Shown here in pieces: positions 34,819 through 53,114 of a stretch of 64,000 bases of DNA (its first letter is position 1; every line of letters starts with the position of its first letter). The notes under the pieces are model-generated. The model did not search any database. It had not been told where the DNA came from and worked only from the letters and a program-made list of their open reading frames with translations. The DNA comes from Escherichia coli (lineage in GTDB: Bacteria; Pseudomonadota; Gammaproteobacteria; Enterobacterales; Enterobacteriaceae). Both the position numbers and the translations under genes were made by a program. Where the stretch lies: NCBI RefSeq assembly GCF_022846255.1, contig NZ_AP025682.1. The stretch is one strand, 5' to 3'.

Positions 34819-34903
34819 AAGCCTGTTGATGTGGGTTGAGTCAGGTTGACTTCAGTTGAGGAGAAAAGCTGGAAAAGCCTTGCGTAGCGCGGATTTCAGG
34901 CAT

Positions 34904-34927
34904 AAAAAAAGACCTCAGTTGAGGTCT
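34904..34927 (-). terminator. Intrinsic terminator (ancestral leuX terminator relic)
   Basis: Hairpin agacctca-gt-tgaggtct flanked by A7 on the plus strand, i.e. stem plus T7 on the minus strand; lies just downstream (minus sense) of the partial tRNA copy. Confidence 0.6.
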
Positions 34928-34940
34928 ATTTACATACTTT

Positions 34941-34963
34941 TGGTGCGAAGGCCGGACTCGAAC
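34941..34963 (-). repeat. 23-bp direct repeat of the leuX 3-prime end (att site / island junction)
   Basis: tggtgcgaaggccggactcgaac matches the 3-prime end of the tRNA at 53030-53054 except for one deleted base. Confidence 0.8.
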
Positions 34964-35685: not shown

Positions 35686-37371
35686 ATGTTTAAAATTATG
35701 AATGCCCATAGTTTAGAGATGAGAAAAGAGTTAGGAGCATATTATACTCCAAGTGCTCTTAGTCAAGTGATGTCAGATTGGGCAATTAGAAGACCAACTG
35801 ATAAAATACTTGAGCCAAGTTTTGGAGGCTGTGGCTTTTTAGAAAGCTGTGAAAAGAGCCTCATGGAGATAGGCTGCATAAACCCAATGGAAAATTTATT
35901 TGGGGTTGATGTAGACCAAAAAGCCTTTGATACTCTCAAAAAAAAATATGGGCATTTATTAATAAAAAAACATTTCATTTTAAGTGATTTCATTAACGTA
36001 TTTCCAAAAGATTTTGGCATTGAAGATTTTGAGGTTATCATTGGGAACCCTCCTTATATCTCTATGCATAATATGAGTTATGAACAAAGGAAGTCCTGTG
36101 AAAAAGTTTTTGCTGACTCACCTTTTAAAACAAAAACATTAGGACGCAATGCAAGTCTTTGGGGGTTTTTCTTACTCCATGCATTAAGCTTCATTCGAGA
36201 AAATGGACGAATAGCGTGGGTATTACCGAGTAGTTTTTTAAATGCCTATTATGCGAAAGAGCTTATAAGAATTTACAAAAATCATTTTAACCATCTAAAA
36301 ATAATAAAGATAAATGAAAGACTTTTCAAAAATGAAGGTGCCGATGAAATGTCAGTACTTTTTTTATGCGATGAGTTTCACAGGACACCTATCAATAATG
36401 GATACGTTTCAATTGGATTTGCTGACACATTAAATGAACTAACCAGCATAATGACTGGAACTAAAGAAAACAAATTAAATAGCTCTGAAAATTACAAATA
36501 TAATATATTAGATATTGACACATTAAATGTGATATCGTCTATAACAGAACATAAGTACAGTTTAAAAATACAGGATATTGCTGATATAAAGATTGGGATG
36601 GTAACCGGCATGAACAACTTCTTTATATTGGATCAAAATCAAATTTTAAAACATAATTTAGACAATAAACATTTTAGACCAGTTATTTCACGATTTTCAC
36701 ATTTGAAGGGAATTCACCACACATTAAAAAGACATACGAAGTTAATTGCAGACAATAAAAAAGGATTGCTATTACACGTCAGTCCAGATGATTTATATGA
36801 AAAACATAGTCCGTTGAGAAAATATTTATCACAAGTTGATAGAAAAGAACGAGTCAAAAACCGCACATTCAAAAAACGAAAAAAGTGGTTTCAACCAGAT
36901 GATGGTATTTACCCAGACGCATTTTTTTCATATATGGTTCATGAGTTTCCCAGAATGATATTAAATAAAGGGAAAGTTAACTGCACTAACTCAATACATC
37001 GTATCTTTTTCAAAGATATAGCATCTAATAAATTAAAAAAAGCATGTTGCATATCTCTTTTATCAACATTTTCACAACTTTCTGCCGAACTTGAAGGTCG
37101 GTCATATGGCTCAGGTGTGCTAAAAATAGAGCCTACCGCAGGAAAGAACATATCATTCTTAATTAAAGATGATTTAATACACGAGTTAAGCAACTTAAGT
37201 AAAGAAATAGATCAATTGCTTTTAAATAATGAAACAAGCAATGCCACTGCTTTAGTTGATAAGTTTTTTGTTGATAAGGGACTAATTAGCTTAGATGAAT
37301 TGAAAAGTCTTAAAAAAGGGTTATTCAGATTAAGAAAAGATCGATATAAAGGGGTCAAAAATTATGAGTGA
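35686..37371 (+). CDS. N6-adenine DNA methyltransferase (Eco57I-like gamma-class) with C-terminal extension
   Basis: Motifs GAYYTP, ILEPSFGGCGFL (motif I-like) and IIGNPPYIS (motif IV, approx 36044-36060); 561 aa; first gene of a tightly overlapping four-gene operon. Confidence 0.8.
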   Translation: MFKIMNAHSLEMRKELGAYYTPSALSQVMSDWAIRRPTDKILEPSFGGCGFLESCEKSLMEIGCINPMENLFGVDVDQKAFDTLKKKYGHLLIKKHFILSDFINVFPKDFGIEDFEVIIGNPPYISMHNMSYEQRKSCEKVFADSPFKTKTLGRNASLWGFFLLHALSFIRENGRIAWVLPSSFLNAYYAKELIRIYKNHFNHLKIIKINERLFKNEGADEMSVLFLCDEFHRTPINNGYVSIGFADTLNELTSIMTGTKENKLNSSENYKYNILDIDTLNVISSITEHKYSLKIQDIADIKIGMVTGMNNFFILDQNQILKHNLDNKHFRPVISRFSHLKGIHHTLKRHTKLIADNKKGLLLHVSPDDLYEKHSPLRKYLSQVDRKERVKNRTFKKRKKWFQPDDGIYPDAFFSYMVHEFPRMILNKGKVNCTNSIHRIFFKDIASNKLKKACCISLLSTFSQLSAELEGRSYGSGVLKIEPTAGKNISFLIKDDLIHELSNLSKEIDQLLLNNETSNATALVDKFFVDKGLISLDELKSLKKGLFRLRKDRYKGVKNYE

Positions 37372-39673
37372 AGATATTCTTTTTTTGAAGGATAAGATGA
37401 AAGCCCTCCTGGATAATGAGGCTCTCGATTATGATAAAGTATTAGAAACAGCAGTAAAAATCACCGAAAAAGACAACAACAATATTAGATTTTCTGTAGA
37501 TGCGAATTTAGTTAGAAGATTAGGTGAGCAGTTAGTCGCTAAAAAAACTACTGCTGTCAGTGAATTGGTGAAAAATGCTTATGACGCAGATTCGACATTA
37601 GTAAATGTATATTTCGAATTGAACGAAGCAAATCCTCGAATAGTCATATTCGATGACGGCACAGGTATGTCAAAGGAAGATATTATCAATGGATTCATGC
37701 GAATAAGCACAAGTGAAAAAGAAGATAACTCTGTTTCAGAACGATATCAGAGACTAAGAGCAGGTAGAAAAGGTATTGGGCGTTTTTCTACACAGCGATT
37801 AGGAAATTATTTAAAAATAATTACCAAGCAAGAAAATGAAGAGTTAGGATATTTAATAGAAATTAACTGGCAGCAGTTTTCAAAAAAGAAAAATATATCC
37901 TTCATTGCTAACACTATCTCAAAAATCGATGTGGATTTCATTCATGGAACAAAAATAATAATAGAAGATCTGAATGATAAAGATTGGTCTGATGGGAACA
38001 TAAAAACGGCTTATAAATATATTAAGAGCATTATAAATATTGCCCCAAGCGAGACAGATCCAGGTTTCCAAGTAAAGTTCTATTATAAAAATGCCAATGG
38101 CTATGAATTAGTTGCAGATGAGAAAACTGAAATTTTTTCTGATAGTGATGCTCATATTACAGCAACACTTGAAAATGGAAATGCTGTAGTGAGAGTTAGC
38201 AGTGAAACCCTTGGCATAAAAAATGAAAGCATAGATGTATGGTATGATGAAAAAAATAACATACGAAAATTCTCACATATAAACTCTCCAGTAAAGCTTG
38301 ATGCATACTATTTCTCATTAGCAACAGTTAACTCCAGAAAACAAGCGGCATATTTACGTGAAAATGGCGGAATAAAAATCTATCGAAATGGATTCAAGGT
38401 TTCTCCTTATGGAGAGCAGTATGATGACTGGACGGCTCTTGATGACTCGGTTCGAAGGAGAAAGATATTACCCCCTCATGGTAATCAAAACTTCTTTGGA
38501 CACGTCAAAGTTGAAGACCTAAATGGAATAGACTTTGAAGAAACGTCCTCAAGGGAAGGTCTGATTCATACCGATGCCTTTCAAGAACTTCGCCTCTTTG
38601 TATATAAAGCACTGACGGCTGCGGTAATAAGAATTAGTGAAGCCAGAAATATAAAAATAAATCCAAATGACCGTAGCTATGTTAAAGAAACTAAACCAAC
38701 AATATCAGTCAAAGATAAATTAAATATTGTATCTGAAACGATAAGCTCGGTTAGTAAATTGGTAGATGCAGCAACATCTGTTGATGACGTTTCAAGTGAT
38801 GGTGTCATTAATAACATTGAAGATAAAAGTATAAGAAACAAAATTATTGAAGATCTCCATGAAGCCGCAGATGAGCTAAAACAAGCGAGTGTGATATCTC
38901 AATCTTTAATCGATGAAATTGAGCTTCTTAGAGTGCTTGGCGCTATGGGCCTTGCTATTGGTGAGTTTACACACGAAATAAATTTATCAATAACAAGTTT
39001 GAGTATTAACGTTCAAAACCTTAAACAGTCTAAATTATTAGAGGAAGATAGAGACTCTGCTCTAAATAGCCTTGAAAATAATATTGCAACATTAAAATCA
39101 TTTACTAAATTTTTTGACAGTACTATACGTGAGAATGTAAACAGAAATAAGAAAGTTATTGAGATAAGAGACTCTATTGAGCCATTTTATGAATCGATGA
39201 AACCAATAATAGAACGCAAAGGAATTCAGTTTGCAATACATTATGAAGGTTATGAACTTTTTACGAAGCCGATTCATGTTTCAGAGCTATATTCTGTATT
39301 TATAAATCTCTTTACGAATGCATATAAAGCAATACTTCGTTCTGGAACAAATCCACGAAAAATGTCTTTAACTGCGAAAAAAGATAGTGAAGATATAATT
39401 ATCCGATTCGAAGATAGCGGTGATGGAATTGAACCTGCAAATAGAGAAAGAGTTTTTGAGCCTTTCTATACAACAAGTACACCATCAGGACCTTTTGAAA
39501 GTGATGATTTATCATTAAAAGGAATGGGATTGGGGTTATCAATCGTACGTGATCTCGTTGAATCCATGTCTGCAGAAATATCTATAGTTGATGCATCCGA
39601 TGGTTTTACAACGTGCTTTGAGTTGAGAATTCCAAAAGCTGATGATAAGGAAATACCAGATGACATCTATTAA
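37364..39673 (+). CDS. Dual Bergerat-fold ATPase: N-terminal MutL/HSP90/MORC-like GHKL module plus C-terminal histidine-kinase core (HisKA-like H-box + HATPase_c)
   Basis: N-terminal motifs ELVKNAYDAD (approx 37562-37591), DDGTGMS, GRKGIGRF; C-terminal H-box GEFTHEINLSITSL (approx 38961-39000), N-box LFTNAYKAIL, G1 EDSGDGIE, F-box FEPFYTT, G2 GMGLGLSIV; no obvious TM segment; start overlaps MTase stop by 8 nt. Confidence 0.7.
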   Translation: MSEDILFLKDKMKALLDNEALDYDKVLETAVKITEKDNNNIRFSVDANLVRRLGEQLVAKKTTAVSELVKNAYDADSTLVNVYFELNEANPRIVIFDDGTGMSKEDIINGFMRISTSEKEDNSVSERYQRLRAGRKGIGRFSTQRLGNYLKIITKQENEELGYLIEINWQQFSKKKNISFIANTISKIDVDFIHGTKIIIEDLNDKDWSDGNIKTAYKYIKSIINIAPSETDPGFQVKFYYKNANGYELVADEKTEIFSDSDAHITATLENGNAVVRVSSETLGIKNESIDVWYDEKNNIRKFSHINSPVKLDAYYFSLATVNSRKQAAYLRENGGIKIYRNGFKVSPYGEQYDDWTALDDSVRRRKILPPHGNQNFFGHVKVEDLNGIDFEETSSREGLIHTDAFQELRLFVYKALTAAVIRISEARNIKINPNDRSYVKETKPTISVKDKLNIVSETISSVSKLVDAATSVDDVSSDGVINNIEDKSIRNKIIEDLHEAADELKQASVISQSLIDEIELLRVLGAMGLAIGEFTHEINLSITSLSINVQNLKQSKLLEEDRDSALNSLENNIATLKSFTKFFDSTIRENVNRNKKVIEIRDSIEPFYESMKPIIERKGIQFAIHYEGYELFTKPIHVSELYSVFINLFTNAYKAILRSGTNPRKMSLTAKKDSEDIIIRFEDSGDGIEPANRERVFEPFYTTSTPSGPFESDDLSLKGMGLGLSIVRDLVESMSAEISIVDASDGFTTCFELRIPKADDKEIPDDIY

Positions 39674-40763
39674 CCTACTTTATATCGATGATGATCAGCC
39701 TCAGCAAGTAAAGGGTTTAATTGAAGCAATAATCAGTAAAGCGAGTTTTGATTTAAATATAACTCATAAACCGCCGACGAAAATGAGTGAAATAGCCATA
39801 GAGTTGAGACAAGGTTATGATGGTATCATCATAGATCAAAAACTTGACAGCTTTGTTGAGGGAGTAGAACCAGTTGATTACTTTGGTGCCGCGTTAGCAC
39901 AAAATTTGCGAACACTCATGGCGGGTAAGTCAGATAATATATCTTATAAGCCAATAATTTTACTCTCTCTCGAAAGCTTATTAATTGAATATTATAATCC
40001 CGATTCAAGCTCGCATGATCTATTTGATTTAGTTTTGAGTAAAAGCATATTAGAACAACCAGAATTGTTAGAAAAAAAAGTTCACTTAATAAAATCTATT
40101 GTGAATGCTTACAAACGTGCACATTCGGAAGACTCGTTATATCAATTGCTTTCTCTGAGCAGTAATTATTCATTGCTTGATAAAAGATTTGAAATATATA
40201 TTTCTCAGTATGATAAAGATATACATAAGCTCGTCACATCCATACACTCCACACTTCTGAGAAGTAGTGGCATGTTAGTTTCTGAGATAACTTTGGCAAC
40301 CAGACTGGGTATTAATATTGAAGAATCGCCAGACTGGCACCAAGTAATTGGGCACCTTGAGGAATATAAATACAATGGCATATTCTCTGATTATTATAAA
40401 AGATGGTGGTGGGCAGATGTAGAGTTGTGGATAAATAAAAAGCTTAACTGCCCAATAATTAAAGGATTAACCTCAGAAAAAAGAGTGGAGATCATCAAAG
40501 AAAAACTTGGCTTAGAACGATTGATGCCAATTCATAGCGTACATCCAGGCCAAAGCACCAAGTTTTGGGTTAATTGTATCATCAGTAAAGAACCTCTTGA
40601 TACAATAGATGCTCTTCGTGCATCATCTATGGAATTAAAACCTTGGGAAGATGATAAATACCTTTCAATTAAAACAGTGTTAGAGAGACGGGCCGAAAAA
40701 TATAAAGTACATCCAGAAGATAGAACAAAATTGGATCGAATTCGGGCGAGGTTTAAATTATAA
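39642..40763 (+). CDS. Receiver (REC)-like domain protein with unassigned ~250-aa C-terminal domain
   Basis: CheY-like pattern: LLYIDDD (beta1, acidic pocket), GIIIDQKL (candidate phospho-acceptor Asp), KPIILLSLES (beta4 Ser); divergent REC, so call is tentative; overlaps kinase gene stop. Confidence 0.5.
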   Translation: MIRKYQMTSINLLYIDDDQPQQVKGLIEAIISKASFDLNITHKPPTKMSEIAIELRQGYDGIIIDQKLDSFVEGVEPVDYFGAALAQNLRTLMAGKSDNISYKPIILLSLESLLIEYYNPDSSSHDLFDLVLSKSILEQPELLEKKVHLIKSIVNAYKRAHSEDSLYQLLSLSSNYSLLDKRFEIYISQYDKDIHKLVTSIHSTLLRSSGMLVSEITLATRLGINIEESPDWHQVIGHLEEYKYNGIFSDYYKRWWWADVELWINKKLNCPIIKGLTSEKRVEIIKEKLGLERLMPIHSVHPGQSTKFWVNCIISKEPLDTIDALRASSMELKPWEDDKYLSIKTVLERRAEKYKVHPEDRTKLDRIRARFKL

Positions 40764-41506
40764 TGAACAATAATACAACTTTGTTAGACGATATGTGTAG
40801 GCTCAGGGACTTTTTATATGATAGCCGCATATGCCCAGATATTAATCCTCTCAACCGTTTAATCAGTAAACTTAATGCAAATCTCCACTCCGAAACAGGG
40901 GAGGACTTTGAATACTCTTTAGACGATTTAGTATTTTATCTTAGCGAAAAATCTGGAACAATTTGTCCGACCCAAATTACACCCAAAGAAAACCCTATTG
41001 AAATACATTTGGAACTTATATTAAAAAGTGAAGGCCCTTATGAATTTTCGAAGATTAAAGAACTTTCAGGGCAATTACGACTTAAAGCTGAGTGGATCAA
41101 TGACACAACAGAAAAAATTGAGATAAAAACATCACATAGTGCTTGGCATTTTGATTATCATGTTCCTCAAATGGGGGATGGCGTAAATTCATTTACTCAT
41201 CCTCAATTCCATTTACAAAATGGAGGAAACAGGCTGACTGATAATTTAAATGACTATGGAGAGTTAATGATTCTTGATGCTCCAAGACTACCTTTACCTC
41301 CTATGGATGTGATATTAGCCATTGACTTTATTATTTCAAATTTCTTTGGTTCTATTTGGCAACAAGCATTATGTGATTCAGAATACATTGATGTAGTTAA
41401 AAGAGCACAAAAAGCATGGTGGAAACCTTATTATGAAGGTATAAGTCAACACTGGTCTGGCAATGGCTCAGGAATATCCAATATCCTAATTCCAAACCTT
41501 CTGTAG
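40763..41506 (+). CDS. Hypothetical protein (247 aa), fourth gene of the operon; possible effector
   Basis: ATG overlaps preceding stop (ATAATG); His-rich segment HFDYHVPQMGDGVNSFTHPQFH; no confident motif. Confidence 0.6.
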   Translation: MNNNTTLLDDMCRLRDFLYDSRICPDINPLNRLISKLNANLHSETGEDFEYSLDDLVFYLSEKSGTICPTQITPKENPIEIHLELILKSEGPYEFSKIKELSGQLRLKAEWINDTTEKIEIKTSHSAWHFDYHVPQMGDGVNSFTHPQFHLQNGGNRLTDNLNDYGELMILDAPRLPLPPMDVILAIDFIISNFFGSIWQQALCDSEYIDVVKRAQKAWWKPYYEGISQHWSGNGSGISNILIPNLL

Positions 41507-41771
41507 TGTATCAAAATCTGTTAACCATCTCCAATTACGAATAGCAATATTTATATAAAACTAATTTTTTATTTTAAACAACTTCAGCAAGGGCTAACTC
41601 TCAGCATCTCCTTCGGTGATACTTTGAGTTGCTCCTTGTTTTTTCGCCCTTTGGTTGAAAAAATTAAAAGCAAAACCAACCCTATACATTGACTTTTTCA
41701 GCATCTATCATATAAATAAAATAAGCATAATGGACATGCTTATTTTACTTTACTATATGAAAGGAGTTCAT

Positions 41772-42185
41772 ATGAATGATAGGAATCATACTTTTAATAA
41801 GTTCGAGCCATTCAGAAGTTGTAGCTATGAAAATTTTACTTCTGCTAAAACACTCTCCCAGCAGACACGTTCTCATTGTATTAGTATCAGATTAAATGAT
41901 GCCGAGTTATCTTACGTTGATGGCTTACGAGAAGATCTCAACCGTGCTGTTTGGATACGTATGTCAGCATTGAATCGTCTCCCTTCCAAAATTCCTGAAA
42001 TAAATCTAATTGTCTGGAAAGACCTTGCCAAAGCATCTCAGAATCTGAATAACCTCGTTCAGCATCTCAACACTAAATCACACGATAGTCCTTTTACTAT
42101 CACCGAAATTTATACGGTACAAAAAAGAATAAAAGCACTAAGAGATGCCCTTCTGTCAGCAAATCGATCTGTCAGTGATAAATAA
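41772..42185 (+). CDS. MobC-like mobilization accessory protein
   Basis: Strong RBS aaggag 5 nt upstream of ATG 41772; small basic protein with ribbon-helix-helix-like segment (CISIRLNDAELSYVDGLRED); stop overlaps relaxase start (TAATG). Confidence 0.55.
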   Translation: MNDRNHTFNKFEPFRSCSYENFTSAKTLSQQTRSHCISIRLNDAELSYVDGLREDLNRAVWIRMSALNRLPSKIPEINLIVWKDLAKASQNLNNLVQHLNTKSHDSPFTITEIYTVQKRIKALRDALLSANRSVSDK

Positions 42186-43372
42186 TGAAAGGGATGCAAA
42201 AAATCCGCAGAGGAAAGAGTTTTGCTGGTGTCGTCCTCTATGCGTTAAAGCCCGGTTCTCATCATAAAAAAGACCCTATCGTGATCGGTGGAAATATAAC
42301 GATAGTTGGCAATGCCGCTAAAGATCTGATCGCTGAATTTGATAGCACCAAACAGCTTCGCCCTGACGTGCAAAAGGCTGTTTGGCACAACTCGCTTCGC
42401 TTACCTAAAGGTGAATCACTAACGGCTAAACAGTGGTCTGAAATAGCAGATGATTACATGTCCCGCATGGGCTTCTCTGAAACGCATCTCAGATGCTACG
42501 TCCTACATGACGACGAAGATGGCCAGCACATCCATATCATCGCCAGCAGAGTGTCTCTTGATGCCGGAAAGCTCTACCTCGGCAGGAATGAGAACCTGGC
42601 AAGCACGAGAATAATTCAGCAACTTGAAAGAAATTACAATCTGACAAGAACCAAAGGGCCAGGAGCTAAAGCATCTACATCTTCTCTTTCCTCTAAACCG
42701 AAACATAAAAAATCACGTAATGAGGCTATGTTAGAGGAGAGAACTGGTGAACCATGCCCTAAATCCATCATCCAAAGGGCTATAGATTCGATAACATTAA
42801 ATCCTATAGCAATTGATGACTTCGTTGAAAAGCTGAATAGCATAGGGATTACGGCGAAAAGCAATATTTCTTCAACTGGCAAGATGAATGGATTTTCCTT
42901 TGAATGCAAAGGTGTTGTGTTCAAAGCTTCCCAGCTTGGCAAGAAGTATAGTTGGAAGAACCTGGAATCAATGATTTCAATGAATTACAACTCACACATT
43001 GGTGATGAAAAACCTGTCATCCCTGAACCTGCTGCCCATCGCAGCAACGAAGCTGTCATACCTATAGTGGAAGACTATTCTGATGAAAAGATTTACCCTG
43101 AGATAAGGGTACCCTTACCAAGACCTGACACAGCGCCCACAAAACCTACAAGCATGACAATGCGTTGGATCGCAACCATACCTTATCTTGTGAGTGTTAT
43201 TAGCGCACTTAAAACGATGCGTATCCCCTTTCTAAAGGCGTTCAATGGCCCAAGGAAGTTCTTTTCCGTGTCCATGATTCACCTGTCCTCTGTAAGCCTG
43301 AAACAGACCAAAACGAATAATTTCAAACCAAAAAGTTCCCACCAAAAGGCCCACAAGCCCCTTCTCCCCTGA
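42185..43372 (+). CDS. Mobilization relaxase (MobA/VirD2-like)
   Basis: Relaxase histidine triad region HDDEDGQHIHIIASRV (HxH motif), N-terminal nickase-like domain; coupled to the MobC-like gene. Confidence 0.65.
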   Translation: MKGMQKIRRGKSFAGVVLYALKPGSHHKKDPIVIGGNITIVGNAAKDLIAEFDSTKQLRPDVQKAVWHNSLRLPKGESLTAKQWSEIADDYMSRMGFSETHLRCYVLHDDEDGQHIHIIASRVSLDAGKLYLGRNENLASTRIIQQLERNYNLTRTKGPGAKASTSSLSSKPKHKKSRNEAMLEERTGEPCPKSIIQRAIDSITLNPIAIDDFVEKLNSIGITAKSNISSTGKMNGFSFECKGVVFKASQLGKKYSWKNLESMISMNYNSHIGDEKPVIPEPAAHRSNEAVIPIVEDYSDEKIYPEIRVPLPRPDTAPTKPTSMTMRWIATIPYLVSVISALKTMRIPFLKAFNGPRKFFSVSMIHLSSVSLKQTKTNNFKPKSSHQKAHKPLLP

Positions 43373-44756: not shown

Positions 44757-44850
44757 CGCCTTGAAAATATTAGCAAGATAATAATCCATAAAGGATAATA
44801 TAAAAACCAAAATAATATGCTACGGTAGTTGTTATAAAAATCACATAAAA

Positions 44851-45273
44851 CTACAGTCCATATTTTTTCCTTTTATCCTTCATCAATAATTCTCTTTTTA
44901 GGGTAGAAGCCTCATGTTTCCTTCTCTCATTAATATAGACTTTTTCGGTTCTACTACCATTGCTCACAATGAAATTGATAAGTGAAGAGCATACGTTTTT
45001 CATACGCTCTTTATCGAGCATGTCATTTTCAATATTATTGATATTGCAGTAATAAGAAAGTAGTAAAAAATTCAACACTACTTCCCTGTTTGAGAACGTT
45101 AGTTTTTCTATTTCAGGCTGGTATTTAATGTAGAACCCGGCACAAAACAGGTATGATTGTTCGATAATTTGTTGCTCTGAGAAGTCTGATTCAGAGAGTT
45201 TATCAACGAATCGATCAAGTAGAAGAAGATACCTTTCCATCAAATGAATATTTATTTTTTCCATAACATGCAT
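44851..45273 (-). CDS. Hypothetical protein (140 aa)
   Basis: ORF in AT-rich island cargo downstream of the recombinase operon; no motif recognised. Confidence 0.5.
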   Translation of the reverse strand: MHVMEKINIHLMERYLLLLDRFVDKLSESDFSEQQIIEQSYLFCAGFYIKYQPEIEKLTFSNREVVLNFLLLSYYCNINNIENDMLDKERMKNVCSSLINFIVSNGSRTEKVYINERRKHEASTLKRELLMKDKRKKYGL

Positions 45274-45357
45274 CCTTGCAATTTATTTTGCCATCCTGAC
45301 AATTAAATAAATACCATAATTATTAATCACGTCAATAGTTAAAACCTATCTATTTTA

Positions 45358-45756
45358 TTAAAGGTATTTTGCAGGTAACGGATTATTAAGTTCTTCAATC
45401 GTTATTTGTTTAAGGTGAGCATTATAAAGCCATACTTTGAACTGCTCTAAATAGCGTTCATTTAATGCCTTCAAAGCCTCATTTTCTGCTTCAAGTCTTC
45501 TAATTCGTTGAGAAGCCACTTTTAAATTAGCAGGTTTTACAGTATGTATTGCACCAGATTTGATAGTGGCCTTTTTCACACTGAAGCTTTCTGCAATCCT
45601 TACATGACTACTTAAGGATTGTCTTGATGGTCTTTTCCCAATAATCCTTACTAACCTGTCGCACAAAGCATCCCAGGTTAGTTTTTCATCTATAGACCAT
45701 GTGTTAATAACATCTACAATCTTCTTCTCATGATAACCATTTATATGCTTAGCCAT
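45358..45756 (-). CDS. Small basic coiled-coil protein (132 aa), accessory gene of the recombinase operon
   Basis: Starts 1 nt after the stop of the 543-aa recombinase; heptad segment RIRRLEAENEALKALNERYLEQ. Confidence 0.55.
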   Translation of the reverse strand: MAKHINGYHEKKIVDVINTWSIDEKLTWDALCDRLVRIIGKRPSRQSLSSHVRIAESFSVKKATIKSGAIHTVKPANLKVASQRIRRLEAENEALKALNERYLEQFKVWLYNAHLKQITIEELNNPLPAKYL

Positions 45757-47388
45757 TTATTCTCCTTTTTTTATTCTCTTATGGAATTCATACCATCTAT
45801 CAGCATTTATGTTCCCATCATTTTTATCATACAGTGTTCTTTTTGAAATTTTATCGTGAATTTTTGAAATCGTTTCGTTATCTAAACCAGAATTCTCAAT
45901 CGGATAATGTTCACACGGCTTAAACGCATATGAGTGCTTGCAGTAGCCATGTTTTGATACCAGTACTGCACCACTACTAAGTGAATCAAACTCATTAAGA
46001 ACCACCACTGGAATATCCTTTATTCTGTGCTCATTAACACACACTGATAACTTTTGTTCTCTTATTGCTTTAGACATTTGAAGATGCGATCTGTGGTCAT
46101 AAGAAAAATTTTGAGAAATAAGCTTACGTCCAGACCAGCGAGCAATACTAAACTCATCCATACCATTTATTTGAGCAAAAGTGTTGAGAAGATGCCTCAG
46201 TTGATGTGTTCTTAGCAAATATGGGCTACCATCATCATTTATATAACCATGTCTTTTAAATACATTTAAATATCCTTTTATATAATCAGAATCAACGATA
46301 TCAGTTTTAAAAAAATTCGTTGTAGGTCTGAATAACTTATCTAACATTTCCTTTTTATTTTGATTTAACTGTCCTTCAGTTAACAAGCAAAGCGCATTAG
46401 AATATTTGATTTTCTTCTCTCTATCATACCAAAAGAGATCTGGAGGTATATTTTCTTTAAGGGTTCCCATCGTTGAATTAGAGTAATTCTTTTGAATTTC
46501 AGCAGCCAATAATCTCGCTTGACTTGATAATTCTTTTAATCTGCTAATAGCCTTTTTTGCTACAGGTATCATTAAAGTTGGAATCCATTTTATATTGCCT
46601 TCATACCCTTTTGCTGAAAAAAATCTTAAACCGTATCTTTGAATGCCCTTTCCATCACATTCTGTAATTTCACAATCCACTGGCAAAGCTAAAATTTCCG
46701 ATATCCTACTCGGTGCACACATAAGTAAAGCAAGCACAGATGTAGTAAATATATCTCTTGACGATAATTGTTCATCCCGCTTTGAAAAAATCTCAGCAAT
46801 CGCAATAACTGATTTGATATCAGGCAATCTAGAATGGCCTTCCAGTGAAGAATCATAACCAGTCCAAGACTGAGTAATCCTATACCTAATTGGACTTATC
46901 CAAAATAAATAAGATGAGTTAGTCATCCTATTATCATTTAAAAATGAACTCAATTTCTCAAGTTCTTTCCCAATAGCAAATGCATGTGCTTTAGAATACT
47001 TTTCAGAGGCTATCCTTATGCATTCATCAAAGATTGAATTGTTGCAATAGTTTACATTAGCTTCCATATTGATTTTAAGTAAAACGAATTCGACAATCTT
47101 CAACATTGATAATGTTGAGTGTTTCGTCTTAGATTTATTGAATGAATGCACATGCAACATATATGCTTTAGCAAAATTAATAAAGCTATCATCTAAGCAT
47201 TCTTTGCTGTTTAGGTTGTTTTTTGAGTTAAACTTAGTAAACCTATATAAACCTTTCCATTTATTGCTTTCCCAAGAAGTTGTTAAATTATTATTAGAAA
47301 TAGTACTCTTACAAAACTCGATGAACTTAATAACATTATCGTGAGGGTTGTTTTTATTGCTTGGTTCAAAAATAAATATATTGTTCAT
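45757..47388 (-). CDS. Tyrosine recombinase (543 aa), third of three tandem recombinases
   Basis: Catalytic-region motifs PSRISEIL (box I Arg), HQLRHLLNT (HxxR), downstream Tyr region; 4-nt overlap with the upstream recombinase gene. Confidence 0.65.
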   Translation of the reverse strand: MNNIFIFEPSNKNNPHDNVIKFIEFCKSTISNNNLTTSWESNKWKGLYRFTKFNSKNNLNSKECLDDSFINFAKAYMLHVHSFNKSKTKHSTLSMLKIVEFVLLKINMEANVNYCNNSIFDECIRIASEKYSKAHAFAIGKELEKLSSFLNDNRMTNSSYLFWISPIRYRITQSWTGYDSSLEGHSRLPDIKSVIAIAEIFSKRDEQLSSRDIFTTSVLALLMCAPSRISEILALPVDCEITECDGKGIQRYGLRFFSAKGYEGNIKWIPTLMIPVAKKAISRLKELSSQARLLAAEIQKNYSNSTMGTLKENIPPDLFWYDREKKIKYSNALCLLTEGQLNQNKKEMLDKLFRPTTNFFKTDIVDSDYIKGYLNVFKRHGYINDDGSPYLLRTHQLRHLLNTFAQINGMDEFSIARWSGRKLISQNFSYDHRSHLQMSKAIREQKLSVCVNEHRIKDIPVVVLNEFDSLSSGAVLVSKHGYCKHSYAFKPCEHYPIENSGLDNETISKIHDKISKRTLYDKNDGNINADRWYEFHKRIKKGE

Positions 47389-48710
47389 AATGCTCTCCAG
47401 GGATTGAATTTTTTACACGTTAAGCATTTCAAATCCTCTTTCGTATCTTCTAATAAGAAAAATGCATCTGAAACATACTTGATAAAAAAGTTCTTGTTTT
47501 CTTCAATCTCTATGCCCATAAGTATATTAGATAAGGGGTTAAAAAACGCACTTAGTCTCTTATCGATGTCATAAACGTTGTCAGGATTGTTTTTTATATA
47601 TATCATAGAAGAGTTTACTGATTTATGATCTAAGGCTTTAGCAATCACCTCAATTGAGGCTCCTTCGTTAGCCAGTCGACTTCCTAACGTATATCTGAAT
47701 CTTCTAGCATTAAGTTCTATATAGCTGTTAGTCCTTTCTGACCTAACATCGAATTTTGACGGAAAGTGTTTTAATAGTTTTGACATAACTGAATTTTTCA
47801 TATGGAAAAAATCTGTTGTTAAATCAGATAAAAAATCCTCAATCCTTTTTGTTTCCGTAATCTTATCTAAATTCATGAAGATTGGTAATTCGCCTCTATA
47901 GTTATTAATCCCAACACTGAATTTATCTTCAACAAACGCCTGATTTTGATTAATTAGCATTGATAAACTGTCATATAAGAACGGTTCTATCATTACCATA
48001 TTAAATTCTTTTCTGAAACATTTTCTTTGTTTTACTTTTGGTACATTCAAAAAGCACCCTCTCTCATTTTTAATGAGATCTTTAGCTTTTAGAGATATCA
48101 ATTGTAATGGCCTTCTTCCTGTTATTGCCAGCAAAAGGATATAACAATACAAAAAGCATTGAATTTTCTTCTCATGATAAAATTTTCCAACGGCGTTAAT
48201 AATGTTATTGAATTCCGTTTCAGTTAAAGGTCCTTTATTTGGATCTCGTCTTTTAACTGCATCTCCTGTTTGGTTTGGAATGATTTTTATTTTCTCCAGC
48301 ATTCTAATGGCAGTCGCATCTACCCCAGGGTAATTGAGATTTTTCCATTTAGTGATGAAAGCCTTAATTGAGTTTAGTTTGTAGTTTCTTTCTGAACCTA
48401 AATAAACATTCAATTGATATATTGCTTTGTCATCAATAGTATCGATGGTCATTGCACCAAACCACTTATAAAATAGATTGTTAATATTTTGTATATAAAA
48501 AGAACTATATTCAGACGCATAGTAAGCTAATGTTTTTAAGTAGCTAAGTTTCATTTTTGTAGGCATTCTATCTACAACTTTATGAGGGTATACGCAGTTT
48601 TCTTTATCAAGTTGCCATTTCTTATCTGACAGTTTGAAACTATATCTATTCATCTTAGCAAAAAAAATTTGCTCACTTTCAATACATTTTATTTCCACAT
48701 TAAACCCCAC
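47385..48710 (-). CDS. Tyrosine recombinase (441 aa), second of three
   Basis: Motifs ITGRRPLQLISLK (box I Arg), RFRYTLGSRL and LDHKSVNSSMIY (box II); overlaps neighbours at both ends. Confidence 0.65.
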   Translation of the reverse strand: MGFNVEIKCIESEQIFFAKMNRYSFKLSDKKWQLDKENCVYPHKVVDRMPTKMKLSYLKTLAYYASEYSSFYIQNINNLFYKWFGAMTIDTIDDKAIYQLNVYLGSERNYKLNSIKAFITKWKNLNYPGVDATAIRMLEKIKIIPNQTGDAVKRRDPNKGPLTETEFNNIINAVGKFYHEKKIQCFLYCYILLLAITGRRPLQLISLKAKDLIKNERGCFLNVPKVKQRKCFRKEFNMVMIEPFLYDSLSMLINQNQAFVEDKFSVGINNYRGELPIFMNLDKITETKRIEDFLSDLTTDFFHMKNSVMSKLLKHFPSKFDVRSERTNSYIELNARRFRYTLGSRLANEGASIEVIAKALDHKSVNSSMIYIKNNPDNVYDIDKRLSAFFNPLSNILMGIEIEENKNFFIKYVSDAFFLLEDTKEDLKCLTCKKFNPWRAL

Positions 48711-49905
48711 TAATTATTTTACTTACTGATTTATAGACCTTTAGGACGACATCCTTCTCTTGTTGGGATATATATTTAAAATTGTATCTATTACACATGA
48801 TTGACTCCTTTGACCAACCCATTAGATAATTCCTTAAATCTTTCCTTCTACTATATTCTAATTCAGCGCCTTCAATTCCTTTAGAATACATATAATTCCA
48901 AGAGTGCCTTAACCTATGACCTGAAAGATTATATAGCTTTGGACTTGCTCGTTTCAGTGTTGATATCACCTTCTCATAAGCTGAAATGCTTAAGGGTTCT
49001 CCTGCGTTTTTTCCGGTGCAATGAGCCACGAATAAGAAATTATGTTTTTTCCTTTTTGTCATTTTTTCCCTGCTATTGCTTATGTAATCAAAAATTTCAC
49101 TGGCTAACTCATCAGATAACGGAATAACCCTTTCTCCAGTCTTTACTAATGGCTGATAAGCTCTTCCATCTTCTTTTGAATCATGTCTTCTGACTACACT
49201 TAAAGTGTTGTCTCTGAGATCAAAATCATCTATTTTAAGATTGAGCAACTCTCCAGCCCTTAAACCTAAATTTAAGAGCAAGGTAAATATTAGTCTGTTC
49301 CTGACCTGTACTTCCTTATGAAAAGGGTTTTCAATCCCACCAATTTCCAATAGACGGAAAAGCACATTGATCTCTTCTTCATTTAACGATTTTTCAGATA
49401 TTTCATTCATATTCAATGAACTGTTTCTTGGAATATGTGCTCTGATACTTTCAATAAATACTTCTACTTCATACTTTGCATGAATCCCCTTTGACGAATG
49501 AACTAATCCACATAACCACTTAAGGTAGCGTGAAAAAACGTGTACTCTATAACTAAAGGTTCTCTTTGCAATAAACCTATTACTTGCTGATTTTATATTT
49601 ATAATTTTTTGTCTATCGAATCTTTGTTTCGCATATCTTACCAGATCATCTATTTCTGCAACGCTGAGATACTTTTTAAGCTCAATTCTCTCAACTATAT
49701 TAATTTTCCTACTATCTAAGAAATTACTAAAAATTAGTAAGTTAGTTGCAACTATTTCCATAGTTGAGGCGGTTGCGCCTCTATTTCTTATGTCTGTAGT
49801 AAGAAATAGATTTTGATAGTAAGCTGGTAGATTACTATTTTTATCAAGGATCAGGCATCCTCGCTCCCCATTACTCATGATGAATTTCTTTACTTTATAT
49901 CCCAT
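48700..49905 (-). CDS. Tyrosine recombinase (401 aa), first of three
   Basis: Motifs LGLRAGELLNLKIDD (box I Arg), GHRLRHSW (HxxR), LMGWSKESIMCNRY (box II Tyr). Confidence 0.65.
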   Translation of the reverse strand: MGYKVKKFIMSNGERGCLILDKNSNLPAYYQNLFLTTDIRNRGATASTMEIVATNLLIFSNFLDSRKINIVERIELKKYLSVAEIDDLVRYAKQRFDRQKIINIKSASNRFIAKRTFSYRVHVFSRYLKWLCGLVHSSKGIHAKYEVEVFIESIRAHIPRNSSLNMNEISEKSLNEEEINVLFRLLEIGGIENPFHKEVQVRNRLIFTLLLNLGLRAGELLNLKIDDFDLRDNTLSVVRRHDSKEDGRAYQPLVKTGERVIPLSDELASEIFDYISNSREKMTKRKKHNFLFVAHCTGKNAGEPLSISAYEKVISTLKRASPKLYNLSGHRLRHSWNYMYSKGIEGAELEYSRRKDLRNYLMGWSKESIMCNRYNFKYISQQEKDVVLKVYKSVSKIISGV

Positions 49906-50029
49906 TTTGACCTCATTCTTTACAAATTAATATCACTCTCACTTATTAAATATATTCCAATTCAAAATAATTCAAATTTTTTACAATGGCTTTAGTTTAT
50001 TTGGTATATATATTAATGGCTTGAAAAAA

Positions 50030-50049
50030 TTTATTTGACGTCAAATAAA
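50030..50049. repeat. 20-bp perfect palindrome upstream of the recombinase trio
   Basis: tttatttgacgtcaaataaa centred on GACGTC, ~125 bp upstream of the first recombinase start codon. Confidence 0.5.
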
Positions 50050-50287
50050 CAGGTACGGCTAGTATTGAGTATCCATACCCGATATTAAGAAAACCATCTT
50101 CAACCCTTATAGCAAAAGCTCTGCTAGAAAAAAGGTAAAGAATTACGTCAAATATACTTATTTTTCAGATACAAACTTTACAAAGCCTCTTTTTTTTCAA
50201 AGCCACTAAGTAAACTCAAAAGATCTCTAAATTCCTTTTTCTTAATACATTATCAAAAGTTAAAAAATCCATGAAGCAGCATTCCTG

Positions 50288-50491
50288 TTAAGCGACATGC
50301 TTTCTTGAATTTTCGATAATTAATTGAATCCATTCATCGATTTCGCTTTCTACAAAAGCGGTAGCACGAATACCGATCTTTACTGGCTGTGGGAACCGAT
50401 TTTGGCTGATAAGACGATAGATCCACGCTTTACCAAATCCAGTTTTCTTCATGACTTCTGGTAAACGGATGAGACGAGCTTGATTTTCCAT
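50288..50491 (-). CDS. alpA: AlpA-family phage/island transcriptional regulator (excisionase-like HTH)
   Basis: MENQARLIRLPEVMKKTGFGKAWIYRLISQNRFPQPVKIG... typical AlpA HTH; RBS agga 7 nt upstream of ATG 50491 (the ORF-track start at 50575 is probably too long); adjacent to the integrase module. Confidence 0.75.
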   Translation of the reverse strand: MENQARLIRLPEVMKKTGFGKAWIYRLISQNRFPQPVKIGIRATAFVESEIDEWIQLIIENSRKHVA

Positions 50492-50611
50492 ATGTATGTC
50501 CTCTGTTGTGTCTACAGGGCTACAGTACAAATGAATTTCGAATGGATGAAGCGAGATTACGAACATCAGAGCCATCCCTGGCTCGAAACTATGAGTCTCT
50601 GGAGATTCATA

Positions 50612-51523
50612 TCACTCAGAGTCTGAGAGTTTCATAACATCCGAAACCCTCATTTCTTTAACATGCTGATTTTTATTGATAAAAAAGTTAAATTGCCTTA
50701 AAAAATCAATTTCTACAGTTTTCATTGCGAAAGGCCGATCAGCATCTCTTATATGATATCCTTGGCGAATCGCCTTATCATCATCTTCATCCGTGTATAG
50801 CAATCGAGATAATCTGTCGTCTGACAGAAGTAATTTTTTTCTTTCTGACCATGCGAGCAAATCAAGCATAGGGATAATTCGATAGCTAATTAATTTTTTT
50901 ATTGCCCCATAACCAAATCTGACTGCATCAAGTGGTGCAGGTTTAACGCCTTTTACTTTTCGCCATTGTGGTAATGATACTCGCAGGGCCTCAGCTATCT
51001 CATCATCGCTTCCACCCGCAAGATCGATTTCTAACATAATCGTAGTAGGAAACTGTTCAGGAATTTTTTCGGAAATATATTCATTTTCAATAGTGGAATC
51101 AATTTTATATTGTTCTGTATTTGCTCTAATGAATAAAGCCTTTCTCATACAATCAAAACTGATATTTGCTATTCGATCAACAGTAGTAATAAAAAAGTAT
51201 GGGGGTTGATATAATTTATTTTCGGCATCCATATAATTTAAGTGCTTCTCTTTGATAAGAAAAGGATCACCATCCAATATCTGCATATAATTTTTCAATA
51301 CTGTTTTCTGCATTCCTTCTTCTATTACTGGTTTGAAAAAATAGGTTCTCGCCCATATTTCATGGTAAAGCATATTAATAGAAATGTTTTCAAACCCTCG
51401 ATATTTGTCCAAATCAAACCACGTTTTCACTGCTTTGGTGTCTTCTGATGTCCAACTATTCATTTTTACCCAAGATTTCATTAATGCCACTCCGTTGTAA
51501 AAAGTTTTACTTCGTAATAGCAC
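50612..51523 (-). CDS. Hypothetical protein (303 aa) of the integrase-alpA module
   Basis: ORF between integrase and alpA on the same strand; no motif recognised. Confidence 0.55.
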   Translation of the reverse strand: MLLRSKTFYNGVALMKSWVKMNSWTSEDTKAVKTWFDLDKYRGFENISINMLYHEIWARTYFFKPVIEEGMQKTVLKNYMQILDGDPFLIKEKHLNYMDAENKLYQPPYFFITTVDRIANISFDCMRKALFIRANTEQYKIDSTIENEYISEKIPEQFPTTIMLEIDLAGGSDDEIAEALRVSLPQWRKVKGVKPAPLDAVRFGYGAIKKLISYRIIPMLDLLAWSERKKLLLSDDRLSRLLYTDEDDDKAIRQGYHIRDADRPFAMKTVEIDFLRQFNFFINKNQHVKEMRVSDVMKLSDSE

Positions 51524-51592: not shown

Positions 51593-52840
51593 TTAGTTAT
51601 TAAAATCAAAAGGTGCAATTCTTCTCTTAGTTGTTTCATCAAGATAATCAGCCCACCACTGCAACATCAACCTACGCTCATCCAAATGCTCAGCTTTATG
51701 AATGTATGCGGCACGAACGGAGTTCCGCTCCTGATGGCTCATCTGCCTCTCAACAGCATCTCTCGACCACTTTCCTGACTCGATCAAAGCACTACAAGCC
51801 ATCGCTCTAAAACCATGCCCACATACCTCAACGGTTGTGTCATAACCCATCGCCCTGAGCGCCTTGTTCACTGTGTTTTCGCTCATAGGTTTTCTGAAAT
51901 CATGATCGCCAATGAATACCAGGTCGCATTCGCCGCTGATTTCTCTGATGGCTTTTAGAAGTTCTAAAGCCTGACGACTTAACGGCACGAGGTGTGGGGT
52001 CTTCATTTTTGAACCTCGATGGGAATGTTTGACTCCTGGCAATAGCTCGCGTTCTCCAGGGATAGTCCACATCGCATTTTCAAAGTCGATCTCCGACCAT
52101 CTTGCGAATCGGAGTTCAATGGAACGGATAAAAATGAGCAATGTCAGCTTCACAGCTAATTTAGTAAGTTTCCTACCTTTAAAGCTTTCAATGCGCTCTA
52201 AAAGCTCTGAGAACCTATCAAATGGTAAGGCTGGTCTGTGGGTTCGTTTCGCAACTGTAATTGCCCCAGACATATCTTGTGCTGGATTGTAGTCAATTAA
52301 GCCATTCTGGACGGCATATCGCATTACTGCCGTAGTCCTTTGCTGTAGTCGGGAAGCAACTTCCAGTCGTCCAGAAGCTTCAACGGCCTTGATAGGGGCG
52401 ATAAGATCTCTGGTATTAAGCTCGGATATTTTTCTTTTACCAATAGCAGTAAAGAGACCATCCTCCATGCTTTTTAGAACTCTTTCGCTGTGAGAATCTG
52501 ACCATTTCCTTTTACAGGCAGTATGCCAGTCCCTTGCAACAGCTTCGAATGTCAGGGCTTCGCTTTGCTCAATCTTATCTGCTTTTTTCTTTTCAGAAGG
52601 ATCGATACCATCAGATACCAACTTTTTGGCTTCATCTCGCTTCCTGCGGGCTTCACCAAGAGAGACCATTGGATAAACACCCAATGCTAAAACTTTCTGT
52701 TTGCCCCCGAAACGGTATTGGAGTCGCCAGTACTTTGAACCATTGGGGTTGATCAGCAGGTGCATACCCTGCCCATCTGTGAGTTTGAAAGGTTTATCGG
52801 AGGGCTTTGTTGTTCGAACTTTGATATCAGTGAGTGCCAT
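51593..52840 (-). CDS. P4-type tyrosine integrase (intact)
   Basis: 415 aa; N-terminal GSKYWRLQYRFGGKQ and C-terminal catalytic region (HGFRAMACSAL, conserved Tyr region AAYIHKAE); starts 190 bp from the tRNA 3-prime end. Confidence 0.85.
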   Translation of the reverse strand: MALTDIKVRTTKPSDKPFKLTDGQGMHLLINPNGSKYWRLQYRFGGKQKVLALGVYPMVSLGEARRKRDEAKKLVSDGIDPSEKKKADKIEQSEALTFEAVARDWHTACKRKWSDSHSERVLKSMEDGLFTAIGKRKISELNTRDLIAPIKAVEASGRLEVASRLQQRTTAVMRYAVQNGLIDYNPAQDMSGAITVAKRTHRPALPFDRFSELLERIESFKGRKLTKLAVKLTLLIFIRSIELRFARWSEIDFENAMWTIPGERELLPGVKHSHRGSKMKTPHLVPLSRQALELLKAIREISGECDLVFIGDHDFRKPMSENTVNKALRAMGYDTTVEVCGHGFRAMACSALIESGKWSRDAVERQMSHQERNSVRAAYIHKAEHLDERRLMLQWWADYLDETTKRRIAPFDFNN

Positions 52841-53029: not shown

Positions 53030-53114
53030 TGGTGCCGAAGGCCGGACTCGAACCGGCACGTATTTCTACGGTTGATTTTGAATCAACTGCGTCTACCGAT
53101 TTCGCCACTTCGGC
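53030..53114 (-). tRNA. leuX: tRNA-Leu (leuX-like, 85 nt with long variable arm)
   Basis: Acceptor stem GCCGAAG/CUUCGGC, T-arm GGTTCGAGTCC and 3-prime CCA read on the minus strand; sits between ahr and a P4-type integrase as at the K-12 leuX locus. Confidence 0.9.

Follow-up and report, generated by a model that had tools for sequence, protein, structure and literature searches.

Recombinase-in-trio (RIT) elements have exactly three recombinase genes, ritA, ritB and ritC, coding for proteins with standard integrase domains, and they have long terminal inverted repeats. The GInts carry a four-gene operon, ginABCD, and in Pseudomonas all four gin genes are required for excision and integration of the element (Bardaji et al. 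2017, PMC5385486). Tn554 has two recombinases (TnpA of ~360 aa and TnpB of ~630 aa) together with TnpC, and strand-biased circularizing elements (SE) have the gene order intA-tfp-intB-srap (Idola et al. 2023, PMC10214605). Here we consider a 64,000-nt stretch of Escherichia coli DNA (contig NZ_AP025682.1 of assembly GCF_022846255.1), called the window below, in which positions are counted from the first letter. At 45358-49905 it holds three tandem tyrosine recombinase genes and a small fourth gene, which an earlier reading, made from the letters and the open reading frames without database searches (the sequence-only reading), had likened to RIT elements or to Tn554 and had taken for a possible transposon inserted in an island. 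Gene order and homology identify the four genes as a complete ginABCD operon, as carried by GInts (the Tn6571 family, related to Tn554). We favor the explanation that this operon serves as a built-in second recombination system in an integrative mobilizable element (IME) of ~18 kb in leuX, acting on an unsplit attachment site with its core at 50052-50079, and we place the probability of this at roughly 0.6.

The ginABCD module is of a known kind and has already been catalogued in E. coli. In a PSI-BLAST-based list, ginC-ginD blocks were reported in 7.5% of Escherichia replicons, and WP_001052044.1, the GinD protein of the window, is listed 56 times in the accompanying ginC-ginD synteny table (Idola et al. 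2023, PMC10214605). GInts, under the name "Tn6571 family", have been described as carrying defense systems at several E. coli hotspots, and some islands in the tables of that study are labeled "IME__GInt" (Hochhauser et al. 2023, PMC10121019). With the module on record before, the finding of its genes is in itself an ordinary result. An unsplit hypervariable core site, and the mapping of crossovers to it, have not been described as far as the searched literature shows.

The gin operon and its products

The four open reading frames (ORFs) are intact, lie on the minus strand and form one operon. From right to left they are ginA (48700-49905, 401 aa), ginB (47385-48710, 441 aa), ginC (45757-47388, 543 aa) and ginD (45358-45756, 132 aa). 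The ginA stop codon overlaps or abuts the start of ginB, which RefSeq places at a GTG at 48698 to give a protein of 437 aa; ginB and ginC overlap by 4 nt (ATGA), and ginC and ginD abut with no gap. The operon is 32.3% GC, the whole island 34.7% and the flanking chromosome on the right side 50.3%. The sequence-only reading described this arrangement correctly: its account of three consecutive, overlapping recombinase genes with a small gene is exact, the third being a recombinase by fold and motifs, and the genes do form one operon in very AT-rich DNA. A scan for promoters and terminators gave a signal no higher than the shuffled expectation, and we left it unused.

GinA is a tyrosine recombinase with the expected R, H330-x-x-R333, W and Y residues, and it matches the Phage_integrase family of Pfam (PF00589) with an E value of 2e-18. 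GinB, also a tyrosine recombinase, has R-R-F-R in place of H-x-x-R in box II and matches PF00589 weakly (E 1e-6). Its score against the NCBIfam equivalog NF041502, "integrase_1", is 325.6 bits, slightly below the curated cut-off of 350, and this explains the generic names that such proteins are given in RefSeq. GinC, named "DNA-binding protein" or "hypothetical" in RefSeq, has no match in Pfam, NCBIfam, PHROG or PADLOC. Its AlphaFold model, with a predicted local distance difference test score (pLDDT) of 76.6, has 39 significant matches in the PDB (E <= 0.001), all of them tyrosine recombinases, among them Tn1549 Int, Cre, IntI, XerH and XerA. In an alignment of 24 GinC homologues with 36-74% identity, R228, H395-x-x-R398, W418 and Y430 are invariant. 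On the strength of the predicted structure, GinC is a divergent protein of the tyrosine-recombinase fold despite the absent Pfam match. GinD, a small accessory protein, is identical to WP_001052044.1 and has no family match in any library scanned (PADLOC, PHROGs, NCBIfam). Weak matches to gamma-mobile-trio GmtY that came up in the library scans (~22-24 bits against a cut-off of 340) were not counted as membership of that family.

The gin block is present in 361 of 5,426 complete E. coli genomes, as a single copy that is chromosomal in every case; none was found on a plasmid in these genomes. This distribution, once per genome and always in the chromosome, argues that the block is no chance occurrence.

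Comparison with GInts and related systems

As references for the Gin proteins we used the partial sequences of Pseudomonas stutzeri DSM4166 printed in the supplement of PMC5385486. In BLASTP searches against these, GinA of the window is 32% identical to its counterpart over 228 aa (E 3e-28), GinB is 25% identical over 227 aa (E 2e-12), and GinC matches two GinC fragments with E values of 2e-6 and 1e-5. Non-cognate pairs were not significant (E > 0.01, and for GinA E > 0.2). The locus therefore has three tyrosine-recombinase-type genes and a small fourth gene in the order ginA-ginB-ginC-ginD, and GinA, GinB and GinC are each homologous to the protein in the same position in the functionally tested P. 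stutzeri element, while GinD is assigned through identity of its accession and not by alignment. Other likenesses to GInts are the overlap between neighboring genes, a divergent recombinase-fold GinC that is often annotated as hypothetical, AT-rich DNA, a variable overlap in the attachment site and a cargo of defense genes. GinC of the E. coli clade retains R, HxxR, W and Y, whereas Pseudomonas GinC has been described as missing part of the motif.

The setting of the operon is not that of a GInt. In GInts the gin operon forms the 5' end of the island and adjoins attL and the chromosomal target; here it is internal to an island that has a P4-type integrase, AlpA and a relaxase of its own and direct repeats derived from a tRNA gene. 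The alpA gene, a DUF6387 family gene and the P4 integrase lie upstream of it and the ends of the island are leuX and a repeat of its 3' end, so the gin operon is not at an island end. The 10-17-nt imperfect direct repeats (attL and attR) that Gin recombination leaves around a GInt were not found around this island, and the putative att core is unsplit. Variable cargo begins after the gene that follows ginD, here called orf140, and not after ginD itself. Toward alpA the core is followed by an AT-rich segment in which motifs are repeated, and this segment would equal the 3' end of a GInt only under circular permutation.

The likeness to RIT elements proposed in the sequence-only reading did not hold up. 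Three adjacent and overlapping tyrosine recombinase genes do speak for such an element, and for an SE there is in addition the small fourth gene. We rejected the RIT identity on the grounds that a fourth conserved gene, ginD, is present, that the third protein has no PF00589 match and that long terminal inverted repeats are missing; moreover, GinA, GinB and GinC have no mutual similarity detectable by BLAST, and each matches its own Gin counterpart. It had also been held that, if the RitA/B/C pattern and element ends were both wanting, the genes would be unrelated integrase remnants. Both are indeed wanting, but the conclusion attached to this is wrong; the pattern found is that of GinA/B/C/D. 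An SE has in common with this locus a four-gene recombination operon and occurrence in the Gammaproteobacteria, and the 6-bp "fingerprint/footprint" beside its conserved terminal motifs resembles the variable overlap found here. It differs in that a non-catalytic protein stands second in its operon (the order here is catalytic, catalytic, divergent, small), in its motif pattern and in its 13-19-bp imperfect terminal inverted repeats, which are missing here. In Escherichia, SE are rare (0.3% of replicons). GinC and GinD fall in clusters separate from Tfp and Srap, with the WP_001052044.1 GinD in the GInt set (PMC10214605), and we rejected the SE identity on these points, the SE proteins themselves not having been aligned. 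That the locus is a RIT element or an SE is, taken together, hardly credible.

The comparison with Tn554 fared better in part. The locus is a Tn554-related, multi-recombinase mobility module, but its type is GInt, and with three recombinase-type genes against two it is set apart from Tn554 as that element is described in PMC10214605. Tn554 (tnpA, tnpB and tnpC, in staphylococci) shares with it the possession of several tyrosine recombinases and a small protein, and GinD has been reported in the literature to be TnpC-like. Site-specific insertion and variable junction sequences of 6-7 bp carried between sites are further shared features; a 6-bp carry-over is documented for both SE and Tn554 (PMC10214605). 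Apart from having only two recombinases, Tn554 differs in belonging to the Firmicutes and in being without an embedding island, a relaxase or a tRNA integrase, all of this being a comparison by description and not by sequence.

A candidate core site upstream of ginA

The region upstream of ginA (49906-50287) contains a candidate Gin core recombination site, attI-like, at 50052-50079, ~150 bp upstream of ginA. On the plus strand it reads GGTACGGCTA-GT-ATTGA-G-TATCCATACC. Its arms are 10-bp imperfect inverted repeats (50052-50061 and 50070-50079) that match at 8 of 10 positions and enclose an 8-bp spacer. Inverted arms around a short spacer are the usual core layout of tyrosine recombinases, as in Cre/loxP, FLP/FRT and Xer/dif. 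In the sense of the gin genes, an alignment of ginA upstream regions gives the core motif ATCG GGTATGGATA C-NNNNN-AC TAGCCGTACC TG, followed by TTTATTTGACGTCAAATAAA. The arms are conserved in E. coli, Klebsiella, Pantoea, Enterobacter, Citrobacter, Erwinia, Kosakonia and Pectobacterium, and four diverged clades preserve dyad symmetry in the outer GGT and the inner TA of both arms.

The five central bases of the core, at 50064-50068, are hypervariable. We found 16 distinct forms of this pentamer in 19 genome loci and 14 forms among 17 further metagenome contigs. Across ten sequences that are otherwise near-identical, the mean entropy reaches 1.53 bits in the pentamer but only 0.05 toward ginA and 0.24 toward alpA, and two Pectobacterium loci are identical over the ~145 nt compared except for the pentamer. 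Variation of attI through cycles of GInt integration and excision has been documented (PMC5385486).

The two arms occur together in all 363 of 363 E. coli genomes, in every true match among species-representative genomes and in 17 of 17 metagenome contigs. No second copy of the core or of its half-sites is present in the window, and a search of viral contigs gave no hit. Both arms, along with the motif-rich segment on the alpA side, are absent downstream of alpA in relatives of the island that lack gin, and from this it follows that the alpA-side arm belongs to the gin module and is no general target. The simplest reading of these patterns is that the unsplit core corresponds to the attI of a circular GInt, rather than to an attL junction.

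Adjoining the ginA-side arm is a perfect 20-bp palindrome, TTTATTTGACGTCAAATAAA, at 50030-50049. In a second clade the palindrome is TTTCTTTCACGTGAAAGAAA, with paired changes that preserve its perfect symmetry, and it is probably a binding site for a dimeric protein; the two versions were seen in the window and the homologous loci L023, L024, L029, L039, L042 and L070. The core has repeated TGTAAAG and ACGTCAAA motifs to either side, which may serve as arm-type or regulatory sites. Distant clades retain blocks of this upstream region.

An enterobacterial-type gin core region, near-identical to that of E. coli, was also seen in a 1866-nt scaffold (L036) labeled as a Flavobacterium psychrophilum metagenome-assembled genome. 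This scaffold is most likely a binning contaminant.

Exchange of the gin block between islands

When the window was compared with four other E. coli islands, the region of ~45200-50100 was found to be 95-100% identical. In the same comparison the flanks are far more diverged, with orf140 ~78% identical, alpA ~70%, and DUF6387 and the relaxase ~55-60%. The opposite pattern is seen between EDL933 and SX45, whose islands occupy the same ssrA/ypjA site. In alpA and DUF6387 these two show 99-100% identity, as they do once more in orf140, but their gin operons are only 60-75% identical and none of the five overlap bases agrees. Identity drops from 99-100% to ~65% precisely at the pentamer. Left flanks come in two types, as do right flanks, and all four combinations occur, so that crossovers can be placed within ~45 nt around the core.

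At the other side the limit of the exchanged cassette lies in the spacer between ginD and orf140 in NWU_3 and in the first ~100 nt of orf140 in SX45. Taken together, the comparisons indicate that the gin cassette has been swapped between islands that are otherwise diverged, as far as sequence identity can tell. Overlap bases that differ in almost all island lineages, together with the crossovers at the core, indicate that Gin strand exchange with partners of other overlap sequence occurs in nature.

Integral module or inserted transposon

The backbone of the island can be written int - DUF6387 - alpA - [gin region] - orf140 - cargo - relaxase. Of five E. coli sites with the order DUF6387-AlpA-ginABCD-orf140...relaxase, four are at identified tRNA or tmRNA genes. 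The sites are leuX (the window and strain TUM11353), proL (strain W2-5), ssrA/ypjA (O157:H7 EDL933, CUVET21-1780 and SX45), thrW (strain WS4437A-1) and a fifth site in strain NWU_3. Beyond E. coli this order recurs in Pectobacterium (GinC 73% identical), Kosakonia (64%) and Salmonella, and it is kept in a clade with a 624-aa GinC, ~43% identical, in three chromosomal contexts. The position of the gin module is thus constant in this island family down to ~40% GinC identity, other genera included. In W2-5 the entire block lies between tRNA-Pro repeats, the P4 integrase being at the opposite end, so the P4 system integrates an island that has gin inside it.

The W2-5 island at proL (L002, 7173-26401) has its P4 integrase/attP module inverted with respect to the DUF6387...relaxase block when compared with the leuX and thrW islands. 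It follows that the integrase module has been exchanged or flipped independently of the remaining island.

In two islands without gin the slot is occupied by other genes. Strain KY179 has a replication initiator and a small ORF in the place of gin, and Z1323PEC0013 has a MarR-like gene and small ORFs; both retain alpA, orf140 and the relaxase. The slots lie at 10410-11509 of JNEC-KY179 (L004) and at 10369-11756 of Z1323PEC0013 (L012), and the int-DUF6387-alpA and orf140-relaxase portions of the backbone are shared. The gin slot seems to hold alternative maintenance or recombination modules.

We considered whether the gin block might instead be a compact transposon, GInt- or Tn554-like and of ~4.8-5.3 kb (the core through ginABCD, with or without orf140), inserted site-specifically between alpA and orf140 of islands already in place, so that the hypervariable pentamer would be the coupling sequence of an attL, as in the insertion that the sequence-only reading had suggested. 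What stands of that suggestion is that the block can be exchanged as a unit, its identity being 95-100% between islands with flanks of only 55-80% identity, and the right breakpoint of the cassette replacement does fall exactly at the core. A strict choice of target, as in GInts, would be expected to give the constant position seen here, and variable junction bases are known in Tn554, SE and GInts. No empty site came to light, however: a query made by joining the orf140-side and alpA-side flanks of EDL933 had no contiguous blastn match in the 5,426 E. coli genomes. Nor could a second end or a target duplication be found in the window, and searches for terminal inverted or direct repeats around the block, which had been proposed as a check, gave chance-level matches only, with no convincing inverted repeat bracketing 44.0-51.0 kb. 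A constant target should yield a constant junction and not a hypervariable one, the left boundary has no fixed point, the alpA-side arm and the TGTAAAG motifs occur only with gin and so are no general target, and a genome never has more than one copy, with none on plasmids. An inserted transposon of this kind is accordingly rather unlikely, and the gin block is more likely an integral, exchangeable module of the leuX mobilizable island. A larger element could also be imagined, a canonical GInt running from the core leftwards through ginABCD, orf140, the relaxase and the cargo to ~34.96 kb, which would have entered a minimal int-DUF6387-alpA island on the downstream side of alpA. This would put ginABCD at the 5' end with cargo behind it, as in GInts, and would suit the finding of the block in both orientations relative to the tRNA-int end. 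We consider it decidedly unlikely, given that KY179 and Z1323PEC0013 keep orf140, the neighboring ORF and the relaxase but have neither gin genes nor core arms, that the distal end has no arm-like partner, and that orf140 and the relaxase diverge along with the alpA side and not with gin. Very improbable, finally, is an inactive remnant made up of unrelated or decaying integrase genes. The lack of split sites, the stable pentamer of O157:H7 and the R that GinB has for the first histidine of box II would fit such a remnant, but the four ORFs are full-length and have identical or near-identical homologues in hundreds of genomes, their translational coupling is retained, catalytic residues are conserved over 36-74% identity, and the architecture of the site is conserved across genera, with compensatory change in the palindrome.

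Some observations weigh against the explanation that we prefer, that ginABCD is an integral second recombination system acting on the core at 50052-50079. A split site, as Gin integration would leave, was found in none of ~400 loci; these include the true hits of the ginA-side arm in species-representative genomes and metagenomes, all of which retain the alpA-side arm. Of the 35 genome hits, most fell by chance in unrelated phyla. The pentamer is constant within the O157:H7 lineage, so activity is infrequent over short periods. The core has no resemblance to the published Pseudomonas att sequences. The variable left limit of the exchanged cassette looks like a contribution from ordinary homologous recombination. 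Lastly, we infer binding and cleavage at the core by the Gin proteins only from its position, its dyad symmetry and the comparative patterns.

Two further positions drew attention as possible element ends and were rejected. The break in similarity at 50184 is a 39-bp indel in the lineage of the window (an insertion at 50185-50223, between the gin upstream region and alpA, relative to the W2-5 and O157:H7 islands). A second junction at ~45283-45290, a variable 3-7 nt before the ribosome-binding site of orf140, varies in length and has breakpoints that differ between pairs of islands.

In O157:H7 Sakai the gin module (NC_002695.2, 3493468-3498823) lies under the annotation "prophage Sp17; lambda-like phage". 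The gene order there, DUF6387-alpA-gin-orf140 beside ypjA, is that of the mobilizable island family, and the Sp17 annotation probably merges two adjacent elements.

The surrounding leuX island

The island that contains the operon is ~18 kb long and is bounded by leuX, a tRNA-Leu (CAA) gene identified by ARAGORN (53030-53114, minus strand), and by a 23-bp direct repeat of the leuX 3' end (TGGTGCGAAGGCCGGACTCGAAC) at 34941-34963, found by k-mer match and supported by coverage in other genomes. The leuX gene is the attachment site of the island, on its attL side, and the repeat marks the distal end. On the minus strand the order from leuX is the integrase, DUF6387, alpA, a non-coding region of 380 bp, ginABCD and orf140. 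The integrase gene adjoining leuX (51593-52840) is of the P4 type (NCBIfam NF007246, 5e-72). The DUF6387 family gene (50612-51523) belongs to the island backbone and was assigned from RefSeq and from PF19924 matches in homologues. The AlpA-family helix-turn-helix gene, of excisionase or regulator type (50288-50575), was recognized from PHROG excisionase families, RefSeq and PF05930 matches in homologues; RefSeq gives it a shorter product of 67 aa. All three are on the minus strand, as is orf140 (44851-45273), a backbone gene directly after ginD that is kept in relatives with and without gin and that matched nothing in PADLOC, PHROGs or NCBIfam. Similarity between islands stops at 44834-44858 in more than 10 contexts, variable cargo starting past the orf140 stop codon.

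The other strand of the island carries two small ORFs, a mobilization module and a cargo of methyltransferase and restriction-like genes. The mobilization module (41655-43372, plus strand) consists of an accessory ORF of 176 aa and a relaxase of 395 aa, for which NCBIfam gives TraI/MobA(P) at 1e-19 and RefSeq "relaxase/mobilization nuclease". The cargo (35686-41506, plus strand; PADLOC and NCBIfam) comprises a type II DNA methyltransferase, a restriction/histidine-kinase fusion and two ORFs of no assigned function. No conjugative transfer genes are present among the ORFs of 34.9-53.0 kb. Having its own integrase beside a tRNA gene, direct repeats of the tRNA end and a relaxase but no conjugation machinery, the element of ~18 kb is an IME inserted in leuX by its own P4-type integrase.

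In these respects the island is like other tRNA-integrating IMEs with a P4-type integrase and AlpA, such as the CP4-57-like elements of E. coli, which share the integrase beside a tRNA gene, the direct repeat of the tRNA 3' end, AlpA, a relaxase without transfer apparatus and a cargo of defense genes. It differs from them in having a complete second recombination system where the related IMEs have a replication-initiator module.

The fusion protein of the cargo (769 aa, 37364-39673, plus strand) has an N-terminal restriction-enzyme domain of the BbrUII/HgiDII type and a C-terminal histidine-kinase (HisKA/HATPase) region. It is preceded by the type II N6-methyltransferase (35686-37371) and precedes the two ORFs, which have no family assignment. 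The methyltransferase and the 769-aa fusion may constitute an unusual restriction or defense system.

Two islands stand in tandem at leuX. A truncated integrase of the intB type (an ORF of 289 aa, in the stretch 33949-34963) lies to the left of the 23-bp repeat; in K-12 and most strains this gene directly adjoins leuX. The older island lies left of this remnant, to ~4 kb, and has very large ORFs of 2107, 1119 and 1478 aa.

A possible mechanism and its significance

In the mechanism that we propose, GinA, GinB and GinC, aided by GinD, would assemble on the core and its flanking motifs and would exchange strands with a partner site over the 8-bp overlap. If the partner were the core of another island, this would produce fusions that could later be resolved by homologous recombination, leaving the gin-side segment swapped; if the partner were a heterologous site, the overlap would be rewritten. 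The P4-type integrase and AlpA would meanwhile account for integration and excision at tRNA genes, and the relaxase for transfer. An excised circle of the island, opened at the core, would have the canonical GInt layout of ginABCD, cargo and an AT-rich 3' end. The partner sites in this scheme are presumptive, as is the benefit of the module, which may lie in a second route of integration, in fusion of elements or in the shuffling of modules.

We can go one step further, tentatively, to a reading that is less likely than not. In this extension the island family has two complete site-specific recombination systems: the P4 integrase parks the island in tRNA genes, and GinABCD with its unsplit site would serve for transient exchange with heterologous sites in other islands, plasmids or phages. 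The pentamer would be rewritten at each event and would record past events, and modules would be shuffled with breakpoints at the core. If this is true, the GInt machinery would here be a device for recombination or hitch-hiking between elements, and not the integrase of the island.

To our knowledge, GInts are among the least understood of bacterial mobile elements, and we know of no explanation for their need of three recombinases and a helper. Neither their sites outside Pseudomonas nor the way in which they move between cells is known to us. The E. coli form offers a compact candidate site, defined by sequence, in a tractable host, with arms, an overlap centered on hypervariable bases, a palindrome and flanking motifs, and natural recombinants already mark the crossover point at this candidate core. 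As the gin form occurs in E. coli O157:H7 and in many islands that carry defense genes, it may throw light on the reshuffling of anti-phage cargo and of island modules.

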